Source: Methanobacteriota archaeon (GTDB taxonomy: Archaea > Altiarchaeota > Altiarchaeia > IMC4 > SCGC-AAA252-I15). Taken from it: a stretch of 41,204 nucleotides of DNA. The translations under genes were made by a program, and so were the position numbers. Every line of letters starts with the position of its first letter. Within the stretch, counting starts at the first letter, position 1. The notes below the pieces were generated by a model. The model had not been told where the DNA came from, made no database searches, and saw nothing but the letters and a program-made list of their open reading frames with translations. Location of the stretch: contig JBDRAY010000067.1 in the NCBI GenBank assembly GCA_043823295.1, positions 1 to 41,204 on the forward strand. Reading direction: 5' to 3'. Positions 456 through 37,147 of this stretch are shown here, in pieces.

Positions 456-1016
456 TTATACCTTGACTTTTCTCCTGCCTTTGGGCCCGTATACATCAAT
501 GAAATCCCGGCGTAAGCCGACCATTAAACCATCGTCTATCTCCTGCCCCAAATCCCTTGCATAAGTGACTAACGCATTTAATTGATCCGCGCTTTCAACA
601 TACCTGACCCGTTTTAACATCTCATCAAACGGCACTCCTTCATGCAAAAGCAATAAACCAGCCATAGTTCCAGTCCTGCCTTTTCCGCCAACACAATGTA
701 GCAAGACTTTCCCCCGCCCCAGTGAATCATTGACTACGCCTATGAACTCGTCCCTCTGCTCGGGAGTCGGCACCCCCATATTCGGAATCTCGAACGTGAA
801 GTGCTCGATTTTTGTTTTTCCCAACATGTCAGCAAATACTTCCGTGTCAGGGAACTCATGATCCGGGATAAACGAAATCACAGTTTCAATACCGTGCCAT
901 TCAAGCGGTTTCAAGTCTTCGCCAAAAGGAACTGCAGAACCCGCAACCTGTTCCTGGTCATCAAACCACCGAAAATTCCCCGGCAACTCCTCAACATACT
1001 CCTCCTCATGACCCAT
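456..1016 (-). CDS. Dual-specificity/protein-tyrosine phosphatase family protein
   Basis: CX5R P-loop HCVGGKGRTG and Q-loop-like VESADQ. Start placed at the ATG of MGHEEEY because the longer ORF runs through the hairpin module. Confidence 0.85.
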   Translation of the reverse strand: MGHEEEYVEELPGNFRWFDDQEQVAGSAVPFGEDLKPLEWHGIETVISFIPDHEFPDTEVFADMLGKTKIEHFTFEIPNMGVPTPEQRDEFIGVVNDSLGRGKVLLHCVGGKGRTGTMAGLLLLHEGVPFDEMLKRVRYVESADQLNALVTYARDLGQEIDDGLMVGLRRDFIDVYGPKGRRKVKV

Positions 1017-1098
1017 CGTGGGGGGGAAATCCTTACCATAAAAACAATGGCAATAACCAATTAAGAATAGAAAAAACAGGCCAAGAAAAAAGAGTTTA

Positions 1099-1193
1099 CC
1101 GCCGGGGGGACGCTCAAAAATGTTTTGCATTTTTAGCGCGCAGGAATCTCTTATGCGATTCCTAGCGTTTGAACAAACTGTTCGAATCCCTGC
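1099..1193. repeat. Copy of tRNA-Phe 3' end plus three-hairpin module with an inverted T-arm copy
   Basis: CCGCCGGGGGGA at 1099-1110 equals 1552-1563. Hairpins at 1111-1138, 1142-1163 and 1168-1187; GTTCGAATCCC at 1180-1190. Confidence 0.65.
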
Positions 1194-1202
1194 TTTTTTT
1201 AT

Positions 1203-1433
1203 CTAATACTGGAAAGCTACTATTTTACATTCTGAACATAGATGGCCTTCACTCATCGTTGATTTATAGGGTGCAGCTTTCGACAACTTGCTTAAAATAT
1301 TCTTAGGTGATTTTGAAAGACACATTTCATTATCGCCTTCACTTTTCCAATAGATGCCAGATGGGCAACCAACATCTGCATAAGAATACACACTCCCTCC
1401 TACCATATCTTTCCCGCAAACCGGACATTTCAT
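1203..1433 (-). CDS. Small Cys-rich zinc-ribbon-like protein (PF20097/DUF6487-like)
   Basis: N-terminal MKCPVCGKDM..G and C-terminal CSECKIVAFQY pattern; visibly AT-richer than flanking core genes. Confidence 0.75.
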   Translation of the reverse strand: MKCPVCGKDMVGGSVYSYADVGCPSGIYWKSEGDNEMCLSKSPKNILSKLSKAAPYKSTMSEGHLCSECKIVAFQY

Positions 1434-1549
1434 GTAAAGTAATCACTCCATGTGAATAAATGTATTGAGGTCAGTTAAGCATGTATTTTACGTGATAGAA
1501 TCGTAAATCTGAAATAATCGATAGACTGTAGGCCTTTTTAGTGGGAAGG

Positions 1550-1623
1550 TGCCGCCGGGGGGATTTGAACCCCCGACACCTCGGTCTTCAGCCGAGTGCT
1601 CTCCCAATCTGAGCTACAGCGGC
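1550..1623 (-). tRNA. tRNA-Phe (GAA)
   Basis: Minus strand GCCGCTGTAGCTCAGATTGGGAGAGCACTCGGCTGAAGACCGAGGTGTCGGGGGTTCAAATCCCCCCGGCGGCA forms a cloverleaf with anticodon GAA and no intron. Confidence 0.97.
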
Positions 1624-1692
1624 GTTTTGTGCTGTGGGACCGTAGCGTCAGCGGAGGTCGTACTCGCGTGTGCACGGAGCGAGCCGTGCGCT

Positions 1693-1723
1693 GAGTGCTC
1701 TCCCAATCTGAGCTACAGCGGCG
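1693..1723 (-). repeat. Exact 31-bp duplicate of the tRNA-Phe 5' part
   Basis: GAGTGCTCTCCCAATCTGAGCTACAGCGGCG occurs at both 1594-1624 and 1693-1723 (99-bp period). Confidence 0.95.
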
Positions 1724-1746
1724 CAAACTTTTTAGGAAAAAGTTTG

Positions 1747-1760
1747 ATTAAAACCTTTTC
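1747..1760 (-). promoter_or_regulatory. Putative BRE/TATA promoter of the tRNA-Phe locus
   Basis: Minus strand GAAAAGGTTTTAAT about 25 nt upstream of the duplicated tRNA 5' end; similar to the motif before porG. Confidence 0.5.
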
Positions 1761-1811
1761 CTTCATATGTAGCGTGTGTATCTTATATGAGATTTGGTTT
1801 TAAAAGTGTTT

Positions 1812-2345
1812 TTATTCTTTTGGTAGGTGTTTTTTCACGACGCTGTGGAATGCCCGCCATAATTTTTCGACTGCCTCGAGTGTTGGTTCTTGGTCGAAGA
1901 TGAGGTTGTAGTCTTGCTCTCCGCCTCTTCTTCGGATCAACTCGCGGGTGTCTTTTTCTTCGCCAACTAGAACGGCAACTCGGCCTGTAACATCTCCGGT
2001 TTTGACTCGAAGCGCCCGAAGTTCTTTGTCGAAGGCTGTGGCCTGATCCAGGCTTTCCGGGTCGGTGTTGTAGATTACATCCAGGTAAGAGCGGGGCCAG
2101 TAGGCTTTGCCTAAGACAGGGTCTTTGATTTCGTCGGCATCGCCCCATTTCGCGCCCGCGCAACATTCACGGGAAGACTTCACGAATGAGGGTTTAATCA
2201 AGTCCTCAAGGAGTTCGGCGATTGAGACATCAACATCTACGACTTTGCCTGTAGGCAGGGTTAATTCCACTTTCTCGTGGCGCGCCCTAGCAGCCTCACT
2301 AATGACCATGGGAGCTTGCCCGGCTTTCTTGGTGACGACGGTCAT
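1812..2345 (-). CDS. Hypothetical protein
   Basis: 177-aa ATG ORF filling the gap, with normal composition and no recognised motif. Confidence 0.7.
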   Translation of the reverse strand: MTVVTKKAGQAPMVISEAARARHEKVELTLPTGKVVDVDVSIAELLEDLIKPSFVKSSRECCAGAKWGDADEIKDPVLGKAYWPRSYLDVIYNTDPESLDQATAFDKELRALRVKTGDVTGRVAVLVGEEKDTRELIRRRGGEQDYNLIFDQEPTLEAVEKLWRAFHSVVKKHLPKE

Positions 2346-4690: not shown

Positions 4691-4988
4691 CTGGGACAAG
4701 ATCACTTACAAGGTGGGCGACGTTGAAGTCACGATGGGTGCGGTCCTTCCAAGCAACGGGTCAACTGCAAACACCAAGACTGGCGGCTGGAAGAGTATGA
4801 GGCCCGTCACAGACCATAAAAAGTGCACGGCCTGCGGGATGTGTTGGACGTTTTGCCCTGAAGCCTGCATTCACCCGCGCAAGGAAGATGGTAAATTCCA
4901 GGCGGACTACGATTACTGCAAAGGCTGTGGGATATGCCCGACAGTATGCCCTGTAAAATGTATTGAGATGGTGCCCGAAGAAAAGTGA
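4683..4988 (+). CDS. porD: Pyruvate:ferredoxin oxidoreductase delta subunit (2x[4Fe-4S])
   Basis: TGGWKSMRP, CTACGMCWTFCP, DYDYCKGCGICPTVCP. Confidence 0.93.
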   Translation: MVDWDKITYKVGDVEVTMGAVLPSNGSTANTKTGGWKSMRPVTDHKKCTACGMCWTFCPEACIHPRKEDGKFQADYDYCKGCGICPTVCPVKCIEMVPEEK

Positions 4989-6157
4989 AGGAATTAATTG
5001 AGGCGTCACACGCGATAGCCGAGGCCGTGAAGGCCATAAGACCCGACGTGATCGCAGCATACCCGATAACGCCACAAACCCACGTAGTCGAAAGGCTCTC
5101 AGACTTTGTGGCAGACGGGGAACTTAAGACCGAGTACATTAACGTGGAAAGCGAGTTCAGCGCGCTCTCGGCCTGCTTGGGGGCTTCGGCAACAGGAGTG
5201 CGCTCATACACCGCAACTGCAAGCCAGGGACTGTCACTCATGGACGAGATACTCTACATCGTCTCGGGAATGAGGCTTCCAGTATGCATGACAATCGTAA
5301 ACCGCTCGCTGTCAGCGCCAATCAACATTTGGAACGACCACCAGGACTCTATGACAGCACGGGATGCGGGATGGATTCAAGTATACGGGGAAACAGGCCA
5401 GGAAGGATACGATTTAACGCTCATGCAGTTTAAGATGAGCGAAGACCACAGAGTGCTGTTGCCTTCAATGATGTGCATTGACGGGTTCACCTTAAGCCAC
5501 GTCTACGAGCCGGTGTACACCCTAACCGACGAGCAAGTCCGAGACTTCCTCCCCGACTACAAGCCCTTGCATGCAGTATTGGATCCGAAAGACCCGATCA
5601 CGCAGGGTCCCATAGGATTTCCAAGCCACTTCATGGAGTTTAGGCGAACCCAGGAGCTGGCCATGAGGGAGTCGCTAAAAGTCATCGAGGAAGTCTACAA
5701 TGACTTTAACAAGCGGTTCCCCATGGAAATACCTGATTCACGACCTGAAAAATACGCTCACTTGGAGCACTATCACACAGAGGATGCGGAAGTCATCCTC
5801 GTAGCCATGGGATCGGTCTGCGGGACGATAAAAGACGTTATCGATGAACAACGAAACAAGGGAGTGAAGGTTGGGTTAGTTAAGATAATAACGCACAGGC
5901 CGTTTCCGTTTGAGGCCTTGAGAGCAGCCCTAAAAAACGCCCAGAAAGTCGCCATCATCGAGAAGGCCATATCCCCAGGACTTGGGGGGCCTGTATTCGG
6001 GGAGATAGCTAGCGCACTCTATGACGAGGAGGACAGACCCGAACTCCGAAACTTCATAGTCGGATTAGGAGGCCGGGACGTAAAGCTTGATCACGTGGAA
6101 AAAATCATCGAAATGACTAAATCAGACAAAGGAAACAAAGAGGAGTGGATGTTTTAA
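4985..6157 (+). CDS. porA: Pyruvate:ferredoxin oxidoreductase alpha subunit
   Basis: AAYPITPQT, VESEFSA, TATASQGL, NRSLSAPINIWNDHQD. Confidence 0.95.
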   Translation: MKELIEASHAIAEAVKAIRPDVIAAYPITPQTHVVERLSDFVADGELKTEYINVESEFSALSACLGASATGVRSYTATASQGLSLMDEILYIVSGMRLPVCMTIVNRSLSAPINIWNDHQDSMTARDAGWIQVYGETGQEGYDLTLMQFKMSEDHRVLLPSMMCIDGFTLSHVYEPVYTLTDEQVRDFLPDYKPLHAVLDPKDPITQGPIGFPSHFMEFRRTQELAMRESLKVIEEVYNDFNKRFPMEIPDSRPEKYAHLEHYHTEDAEVILVAMGSVCGTIKDVIDEQRNKGVKVGLVKIITHRPFPFEALRAALKNAQKVAIIEKAISPGLGGPVFGEIASALYDEEDRPELRNFIVGLGGRDVKLDHVEKIIEMTKSDKGNKEEWMF

Positions 6158-36904: not shown

Positions 36905-37026
36905 GAAAGCAGCATCTGGTCGGATTGTGCCGTCTTTTACGGCACGAATGCTTCTCACGCTCTGAGGGGCTAAGCGACTGAAAGGAGTGCATGCCCCTCC
37001 CGCATGTGAACTGGGCGTGACAGTTC
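36905..37026 (+). other. Structured GC-rich element between the glyA promoter and the tRNA-Arg 3' end
   Basis: TTGTGCCGT/ACGGCACGA, TCACGCTC/GGGCGTGA and GAGGGGC/GCCCCTC stems; function unknown. Confidence 0.5.
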
Positions 37027-37100
37027 GGACCCGCTGGGATTCGAACCCAGGATCCCCGGATTAGAAGTCCGGTGCCCTATCCAGGCTAGGCTACGGGCCC
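37026..37100 (-). tRNA. tRNA-Arg (TCT)
   Basis: Minus strand GGGCCCGTAGCCTAGCCTGGATAGGGCACCGGACTTCTAATCCGGGGATCCTGGGTTCGAATCCCAGCGGGTCCG; anticodon TCT, CCA not encoded. Confidence 0.97.
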
Positions 37101-37147
37101 AGTTGAGGTAATCTTATAGTGGTTTAAAGTAAAATAGTTTCTTTTCC

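Follow-up and report, generated by a model that had tools for sequence, protein, structure and literature searches.

Archaeal introns are recognised by a bulge-helix-bulge motif, in which two bulges of 3 nucleotides (nt) surround a 4-bp helix and an exon helix flanks the whole. Remnants of integrative elements that are flanked by att sites but lack an integrase are known, as a bacterial concept, under the name of cis-mobilizable elements (CIMEs). Both notions bear on the locus described here, a folded module and a small zinc-ribbon gene on the 3' side of the tRNA-Phe gene in an archaeon of the Altiarchaeales (GenBank assembly GCA_043823295.1, contig JBDRAY010000067.1). Among archaea, the closest described systems are the integrative elements of the SSV and pNOB8 types and the tRNA introns of the Thermoproteales. 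Intron-bearing attP sites, and tRNA fragments left behind by integration, are proposed by Sugahara et al. 2012 (PMC3293823). Transposition of tRNA introns in the Thermoproteales (Fujishima et al. 2010) is summarised in a review (PMC4090602) which describes the mechanism by which introns arrive in archaeal tRNA genes as unknown.

The DNA under study, hereafter the window, is a complete contig of 41,204 nt (C67 of the source assembly, which has 1.75 Mb in 156 contigs and is 87.6% complete). Contigs of the source assembly are designated own Cn, contigs of related genomes Gnnn:Cn, and individual loci Lnnn. Our preferred reading, to which we assign a probability of roughly 0.55, is that the module is a relic consisting of a spare tRNA tail with a mobile intron-like insert, and that the small gene is a passenger in a recombination-prone interval. 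Duplications of the att type at tRNA genes and non-canonical archaeal introns are known kinds of objects; the family of spare tails with a T-loop element is very probably new.

On the tRNA strand, positions 1099-1198 repeat the tRNA-Phe 3' end a second time, in degenerate form, and are split by a 57-nt two-hairpin element (2HP) whose insertion point lies exactly between T-loop positions 59 and 60. A previous reading of the window, made from the sequence only, had noticed that a 12-nt string from the 3' end of tRNA-Phe recurs further along the contig. The recurrence is exact: CCGCCGGGGGGA is found at 1099-1110 and at 1552-1563, the second copy inside tRNA-Phe(GAA), with identity in 12/12 nt. 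When one mismatch is allowed, the window has 2 matches versus 0.10 expected, and none of 100 shuffled sequences gave 2. Homologous repeats are present in relatives, and the family alignment places the window repeat together with the tRNA-matching 3' piece of the relatives. The repeat genuinely duplicates the end of the tRNA. In minus-strand order, a T-loop-like TTCAAA (1173-1168) leads into the insert (1167-1111) and this in turn into the 12-nt repeat (1110-1099). The insert forms two hairpins (1142-1148/1157-1163 and 1115-1122/1127-1134) and has 4-nt ends of the form CGCU...AGCG. On its 5' side, the pseudo T arm contains GGGAUUCGAAC, which on the plus strand reads as an inverted T-loop fragment; an odd 5' side of this kind, with a local hairpin, is also seen in G019:C97.

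Folding of the plus strand between 1095 and 1205 yields -37.5 kcal/mol (z -4.37, 0/200 shuffles as good), and the minus strand folds less well (z -2.88). A covariance model of the family, R1, gives 78 bits on the minus strand versus 28 bits on the plus strand, and the meaningful reading is therefore that of the tRNA strand. The sequence-only reading had described three tandem hairpins closed by GGGA/TCCC, all of which fall within the minimum-energy fold of the plus strand, and an inverted copy of the tRNA-Phe T arm; direct reading confirms the latter, as GTTCGAATCCC at 1180-1190 is a 10/11 match. The hairpins are real, but the third one (TTTGAAC/GTTCGAA) is not a family feature, as most relatives have a T stem in its place. 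Runs of T are found downstream of the module on the minus strand. In an Rfam search with E values up to 10, covering window positions 900-1900 and 4750-5200 of locus L116, tRNA alone passed.

Blocks homologous to the module are found directly after tRNA genes in relatives, for instance after tRNA-Phe in G012, G004 and G005 and also after other tRNAs. Each block begins with the variable loop, the 5' strand of the T stem and TTCRAA of the same tRNA, continues with a two-hairpin insert of about 55 nt, and ends with T-loop position 60, the 3' strands of T stem and acceptor, the discriminator base and 3-7 trailer bases. The duplicated stretch has the same limits throughout: it begins at the variable loop and stops 3-7 nt into the trailer, after which the original downstream sequence resumes (G004:C10, G019:C93). 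R1 was built from 7 copies with 19 pairs (alignment A1). Eight of these 19 pairs have changed on both sides, and 95.5% of the cells are paired; 0/500 shuffles reach the observed value, and alignments slid out of register are 36-59% paired. R1 matches are found in 23 of the 49 Altiarchaeales genomes, often several in each: 15/20 genomes have them in the family to which the window belongs, 2/2 in family f3 and 2/22 in family f5. At least 12 kinds of tRNA are concerned (Phe, Ile, Pro, Gly, Arg with two anticodons, Gln, Asp, Ser with three anticodons, Ala, Thr, Val and Met).

Altogether, 42 modules of the T-loop type were placed, five of them (L052, L117, L062, L119 and the window) by eye, the ARAGORN ends being off. 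No gene intervenes between tRNA and module in 28/42, which lie at most 190 nt away or in tandem arrays; these comprise 14 modules no more than 25 nt behind the cognate tRNA, 4 no more than 14 nt behind a tRNA but with the T arm of another tRNA, and 10 that are either 26-190 nt away or come second or later in a tandem array. Open reading frames (ORFs) separate tRNA from module in 3 cases, and one module lies within a full-length copy of tRNA-Ser. For the remaining 10, the available sequence, often only a few hundred bases long, contains no cognate tRNA. Modules like that of the window thus exist at other tRNAs, a point that the sequence-only reading had made its own touchstone, and the covariance model that it had suggested could be built, with pairs that covary and recurrence across the order. 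We consider it very probable that the window module belongs to a family, new and well supported, whose members are spare tRNA tails carrying a T-loop intron-like element.

Two particular arrangements were seen in this family. After tRNA-Val in G019:C93 (1202-1404), spacer and module form an exact tandem repeat of 101 nt, followed by an A unit (an upstream-side element described below). In G027:C68 and G027:C10 the T arms are swapped: behind tRNA-Met the module repeats the T arm of tRNA-Ile, and behind tRNA-Ile that of tRNA-Met. Both tRNAs have the same acceptor end, and the swap, as read from these contigs, suggests an exchange between loci.

The insert sits between the sixth and seventh positions of the T loop (7 nt), a point that corresponds to site 37/38 of the anticodon loop. 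Splice geometry was assessed in 39 modules. The four bases that precede the last two of the insert, mostly UGAG, pair with T-loop positions 54-57. This helix (H helix) is complete, 4/4, in 27 of the 39 modules, reaches 3/4 in 5 and stays at 2/4 or less in 7. The outer T stem is complete (5/5) in 27/39, and only 17/39 show all pairs (4/4) of the alternative stem that closes the insert. In most members, 3-nt bulges are found on either side of the H helix with the T stem outside, which is, on the predicted pairings, the bulge-helix-bulge geometry cut by the archaeal splicing endonuclease; insert ends and T arm give the canonical motif in 27/39 copies. A compensatory double change in G019:C56, where a T loop UUAGAA faces CUAG, keeps the pairing. 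The window copy has an H helix and a closing stem of 4/4 each, with bulges AA/C and CG/U.

The 2HP is not confined to spare tails. Some ordinary 37/38 introns (tRNA-Met, tRNA-Trp and others) contain it; it also lies in the D loops of upstream 5' fragments and in the loops of other hairpins, and in own C149 it is nested in an A unit that follows a tRNA-Cys-like gene. An insert and its nearest neighbour share the isotype in 4/38 cases and the genome in 8/38, and insert identity reaches 93% between a Gly module (G014) and a Phe module (G005) of different genera, as well as between Arg-TCT and Arg-TCG. The independence of insert sequence from tRNA type suggests that the insert moves; highly similar inserts in different tRNA types are the mark of a transposed intron. 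The pattern matches intron transposition in the Thermoproteales as summarised in PMC4090602, and the bulge-helix-bulge at the junctions is shared as well. Measured against the same summary, the present case differs in that most copies sit in spare partial tRNA ends and not in a working gene, and in that the order is Altiarchaeales, the two-hairpin core is fixed, the 3' end pairs with the universal T loop, and splicing is only predicted. A full-length copy of tRNA-Ser(GCU) with an insert in its T loop, and with mismatches in acceptor and T stem, is found at own C64:9100-9460 (minus strand) and in G003:C37; an intact, insert-free copy follows in tandem 85 nt downstream, then an A unit, and a 10-nt 5' fragment lies further upstream.

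Between the two 12-nt repeats the window has a single ORF, the small AT-rich zinc-ribbon gene noticed in the sequence-only reading (76 amino acids, GC content 39% versus 47% for the window), which belongs to the DUF6487 family. As that reading also held, no recombinase gene is present in the unit. The genome, which is 87.6% complete, yields no match to the integrase family PF00589. The gene is variable. A 6278-nt contig from a DNA run, X1, about 89% identical to the window, covers 912-1191 (28 differences, 4 gaps) and resumes at 1516-1623, with 22 other letters in place of 1192-1515; its order is phosphatase, module, about 54 nt, tRNA-Phe, without the DUF6487 gene. In the source assembly itself, C139:3018-3212 equals window 1004-1198 with 2 mismatches in 195 nt (module and phosphatase start) and continues beyond 1198 with a gene for a 328-residue protein without Pfam match and a gene resembling phosphoenolpyruvate synthase genes; this path may be a second copy or a strain variant. 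None of the public runs contained half of the sampled words (best shares 0.05-0.06), and only their covered parts are informative.

The breakpoints of these alleles are 1191, 1198 and 1516, none of them at the 12-nt repeat, and the X1 contig keeps both repeats and the module. The X1 and C139 alleles hence indicate that the module is fixed while the DNA on its tRNA side varies. Comparison of tRNA-Phe loci, which the sequence-only reading had recommended, therefore gave a divided answer: the small gene does vary between strains, but not with breakpoints at the repeat, and the variable unit is 1192-1515 instead of the stretch of about 450 bp between the repeats. The DUF6487 gene is not bounded as a unit by the 12-nt repeat and, judging from the alleles, is an accessory, strain-specific passenger and not a proven cassette. 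It is found in 1/40 relatives (40% identity), where it is not beside a tRNA. The nearest Atlas clusters of its protein are bacterial DUF6487, which is no more than a lead; a word-based homologue search was empty and a metagenome scan returned one weak partial relative. The phosphatase gene downstream of the module is found in 3/40 relatives (27-35% identity) and in 0/3 genomes of the same genus. An ORF called at 456-1130 would extend over the 12-nt repeat and into the insert; the phosphatase probably starts at 1016 (MGHEEE..), which fits the Pfam match and a TATA-like stretch, the extension 1017-1130 being probably non-coding.

Table 1. Features of the tRNA-Phe locus in the window.
Feature	Position	Strand	Remarks
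DSP/PTP-type (dual-specificity/protein tyrosine) phosphatase gene	456-1016	-	Downstream of the module; accessory; PF22784, E 1.1e-12
3' pseudo-exon (12-nt repeat)	1099-1110	-	T-loop position 60, T-stem 3' strand and 6 nt of acceptor 3' strand; exact copy of 1552-1563
Two-hairpin insert (2HP), 57 nt	1111-1167	-	Model R1, 78 bits, E 7.5e-18
Degenerate 5' side of pseudo T arm	1168-1198	-	T-loop-like TTCAAA at 1168-1173; local GAAC/GUUC hairpin replacing the T-stem 5' strand; GGGAUUCGAAC
Strain-variable segment, 324 nt	1192-1515	.	DUF6487 gene and flanks; skipped by the X1 contig; GC 36%
DUF6487 zinc-ribbon gene, 76 amino acids	1203-1433	-	CxxC...CxxC; PF20097, E 4.6e-8, 33.8 bits (cut-off 24)
tRNA-Phe(GAA)	1548-1623	-	Intact, without intron; ARAGORN; Rfam tRNA, 66.2 bits
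A unit	1630-1689 (core 1665-1688)	-	Between 5'-half copy and tRNA-Phe; core identical at five other tRNA loci of the source assembly
tRNA-Phe 5'-half copy, position -1/+1 to about 33	1690-1723	-	34 nt, 97% identical to 1591-1624; absent from the sequence-only reading

If a spare tail with a mobile insert is the correct reading, the two-hairpin element would be an intron-like element that fits T loops, and the module would be a pseudo-exon: a displaced or duplicated tRNA tail without a present function of its own. At most it would provide the transcript of the small gene with a 3' structure before its T-run terminator. The interval between tRNA and spare tail acts as a lodging place for foreign DNA (324 nt here, 0.5 and 2.9 kb elsewhere). 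Our best guess is that tRNA-targeting integrases acting in trans may recombine at the tRNA 3' end, displace the tail, admit a gene and leave an integrase-free remnant. Almost equally probable is an illegitimate recombination within a neutral spacer. For the origin of the arrangement, we rank integrases in trans first, the footprint of an arriving intron second and integron-like capture third.

Matches to PF00589 are found in 30 of the 49 genomes of the order, and 9 of 12 further integrase loci have a tRNA no more than 800 nt away, which indicates that tRNA-targeting elements are common in the group. The one case that supports a link between integrases and the module family is a 3.4-kb element in G003:C43, where tRNA-Lys is followed by a gene for an integrase of 259 residues, a direct repeat of at least 60 nt starts in the T loop, and a two-hairpin element lies 9 nt before the distal repeat. 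This integrase, long repeat and far-end two-hairpin element make G003:C43 resemble archaeal SSV- and pNOB8-type elements, and the window shares with them a partial copy of the tRNA end beyond an intact tRNA, with foreign DNA between, as well as upstream tRNA 5' fragments and an intron in one of two repeat copies. The differences are that no integrase is found at the locus or near almost any module, that the usual spacing of 0-25 nt is not a product of integration followed by excision, and that one conserved, structured insert family extends across many tRNA types, with breakpoints off the repeat. With CIMEs the locus shares DNA without recombination genes between tRNA end and repeat; it differs in that repeats do not delimit the variable segment and that there is no known helper element.

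Several observations weigh against our reading. The T stem of the window copy is only 2/5, and with a broken stem this copy may not be spliced even if the family is. The sole contig from an RNA library spans 1602-1726, outside the module, and excision of the insert is a prediction. The integrase link is thin: PF00589 has 0 matches in the source assembly, in a search whose control was found in 14/14 genomes and to which the incompleteness of the assembly leaves room; R1 run over the 12 integrase loci (152 kb) gives a single weak match of 18 bits; and only two weak R1 matches lie within 10 kb of an integrase match on the same contig. Integration and loss do not account for the common spacer of 0-25 nt, because ordinary integrase excision leaves no scar of the order tRNA, spacer, module. 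Near-identical inserts with locally matching flanks favour insertion into local T loops over an imported attP, and the segment breakpoints at 1191 and 1516, with 22 nt substituted and without repeat or site, bear no site-specific mark. Finally, modules that flank ORFs on both sides (G008:C400, G014:C19) look more like cassettes than like plain relics.

Other candidate partners were considered. Integrases were rejected as general neighbours of the modules, there being one case only, and so was reverse transcriptase, which is rare: PF00078 is found in 6/49 genomes and in 1/20 of the family richest in modules. In viral contigs, the hairpin pattern gave 11 matches without T-loop context or second hairpin, which we read as chance, and the A-unit core gave 0; with matches of this kind, no viral attP was found. 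A pattern scan of public genome contigs returned 6 matches, 4 archaeal and 2 bacterial, the latter chance-like.

A different account of the spare tails, fairly unlikely in our judgement, is that they are footprints of intron arrival. The UGAG end of the insert would pair with any T loop and enter at the RNA level by reversed action of endonuclease and ligase; a partial DNA copy of the invaded pre-tRNA, from the 3' trailer back to the variable loop, would then be laid behind the parent gene. The product would be the tRNA, a short filler and a block made of variable loop, T arm with insert, acceptor and trailer, and the small gene would be a later, unrelated illegitimate recombination into the spacer. 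Such an origin would account for module flanks that match the local tRNA while inserts are common to tRNA types and genera, and also for the lack of association with integrases. The constant limits of the duplicated stretch, with the original downstream sequence after it, fit a retro-copy, and upstream 5' fragments begin exactly at tRNA +1. The scarcity of PF00078, above all in the family richest in modules, speaks against it, however, as does the absence of encoded CCA from the copies; the trailer bases that they contain rule out a mature tRNA as their source, and purely local copying leaves the Met/Ile swap of G027 unexplained. To our knowledge, reverse splicing by archaeal enzymes has not been shown.

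A bolder version, which we hold to be unlikely, has an active mobile intron of archaea entering T loops by its UGAG end and making the spare tail on insertion, the resulting pairs of tRNA and tail being landing pads for gene exchange without integrase. If it were true, these loci would show the arrival of archaeal tRNA introns, and the capture of genes, in the act. In any case, the Altiarchaeales offer a sharp instance of the problem of intron arrival, with one structured element in at least 12 tRNA types and the universal T loop as its pairing partner. The insert lies mostly in spare tails beside intact genes, and this looks like the footprint of insertion, or else of the cell's escape from it.

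The sequence-only reading had favoured a cassette captured in trans through a folded, single-stranded attC-like site, and this found partial support: the gene is accessory and free of an integrase, but the capture logic itself is not supported. As a general proposal, the tRNA 3' end and the folded module would form a capture platform that cassettes enter and leave in trans, which appears quite doubtful to us. Several loci give it substance. Besides the window, genes without an integrase stand between tRNA and cognate module in two other genera: in G010:C71, tRNA-Arg is followed by 534 nt with one gene for a 134-residue repeat protein and then by the module, and in G015:C3, tRNA-Arg(TCT) is followed by 2.85 kb encoding a 491-residue Cys-rich protein and a Fic-domain protein before the module. 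Three loci in three genera thus hold accessory genes only, and the inserts of G010:C71 and G015:C3 are 93% identical. Arrays of module, ORF and module occur in G014:C19 and in G008:C400, where the last 48 nt of an ORF and the module are present twice, around an ORF of 149 residues; no integrase was found at any of these four loci. Sequence varies while structure is kept, and the three alleles of the window locus diverge just on the tRNA side of the module.

Integron attC cassettes are indeed similar in their folded site, in the conservation of structure over sequence, in the small, promoterless-looking accessory genes that adjoin it, in the absence of a recombinase from the unit and in a few array-like arrangements. 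On the other hand, neither IntI nor attI nor Pc was found. The site consists of a tRNA tail in which an intron-like insert sits; it mostly lacks a gene and does not move along with the one present here. Across the alleles the upstream gene differs and the module keeps its place beside the downstream DNA, which is the opposite of a cassette carrying its own site: in C139 it adjoins a different gene and in the X1 contig nearly the tRNA itself. Breakpoints lie neither at the repeat nor at a common motif (no shared motif was seen by eye at the edges of the three cargo segments), and 28/42 modules have no gene in the interval. The structured part has archaeal splice geometry in a T loop, and the same element occurs in spliced tRNA introns; both observations point towards an intron-like element of RNA and away from a DNA site of the attC kind. 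Recombinases do not co-occur with the modules, nor was one found in the genome of the window. Circles or other contexts of the DUF6487 gene were not found in public runs of low cover, in the homologue search or in the metagenome scan, and viral contigs gave no insert beyond the 11 chance-like matches and no A unit.

That there is nothing special here, the hairpins being the 3' untranslated structure and terminator that belong to the small gene, or else a plus-strand small RNA without relation to it, and the repeat a coincidence, is very improbable: the T runs after the module and the 33 direct 12-mer repeats at distances of up to 600 nt in the window would suit it, but a specific 12-mer is expected only 0.10 times, dozens of homologous, covarying copies are linked to tRNAs, the X1 contig and C139 both have the module but lack the small gene, and we consider the idea already contradicted by the covariation, the family matches and the X1 contig.

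Upstream of tRNA-Phe, a copy of the 5' half of the gene and the A unit follow one another (Table 1). The A unit consists of a core, CACGGCUCGCUCCGUG..ACACGCG, and a variable hairpin (own C71, C66, C112, C64, C117 and C149; L082-L112). With up to 3 mismatches it is found in 17/49 genomes, a reversed control pattern giving 0, and its closing pair covaries (C..G, A..U, G..C). Three copies stand after a conserved end that is not a tRNA (..CCCCTTGTTCATG); all others come right behind a sequence derived from a tRNA, namely the 3' end of a tRNA, a module or a 5' fragment. Such 5' fragments begin at tRNA +1 and end in the D loop or the anticodon stem. The order of 5'-half copy, A unit and tRNA-Phe is kept in G008 and in G026, which belongs to another family, and G005 has 5'-half copy and A unit in the same order at another tRNA gene (anticodon CAT). 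As the only AT-rich, promoter-like stretch lies upstream of the 5'-half copy, with none between A unit and tRNA, copy and A unit probably form a long leader (99 nt, 1625-1723). The RNA-library contig at 1602-1726 is a weak hint of co-transcription.

As a candidate ribozyme or C/D box RNA, the A unit has no Rfam match and no visible boxes. Neither the insert family nor the A unit has an Rfam entry, and a search of a library of papers found no mention of either for the Altiarchaeales. Isolated 5' and 3' pieces beside conserved flanks recall the split or fragmented tRNA genes of archaea. A split or trans-spliced tRNA was nevertheless rejected: the locus has an intact tRNA-Phe, its two pieces (positions 1-33, and T loop to 3' end) are insufficient and not joinable, and the flanks are copies and not complements. 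A splice motif for the arrangement of 5' fragment and A unit was likewise rejected by hand, its helix strands being identical instead of complementary. A variant of the A unit, ACUGUCACGCCCAGUU..ACAUGCG.. with a hairpin, is found in the window at 36960-37024 (minus strand), after tRNA-Arg(TCT) at 37025-37101, and also after the module in G027:C68. At three loci of relatives (L017, L018 and L020; G017:C105, G009:C72 and G022:C51), the gene is preceded by 1-3 additional tRNA-Phe 5' halves in tandem; some run into intron-like sequence and some have a multi-hairpin insert in the D loop.

Introns at 37/38 of tRNA-Phe are common in relatives, and the tRNA-Phe of the X1 contig has about 76 extra bases at this site (window 1585/1586). 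Within the genus, the intron is absent in G002 and present in G001. Run with its intron option on the source assembly, ARAGORN reported only 17 tRNA genes, 10 of them with predicted introns of 43-169 nt, and missed tRNA-Phe. Many tRNAs of this genome are probably masked by unusual introns or lost in assembly gaps, and modules and A units offer an explanation for the low recovery of tRNAs by tRNA finders in these genomes. For annotation, modules of this kind should not be called provirus att sites or small RNA genes without regard to their tRNA-tail context. Two further small elements recur, long CCCCUUUUCUUUCUU..AAGAAAGAAAAGG hairpins and GGGCCAUCUUCG..CUCGAUGACCC; both are found in tRNA introns and just after tRNA genes (L002 1300-1400, own C117, L047).

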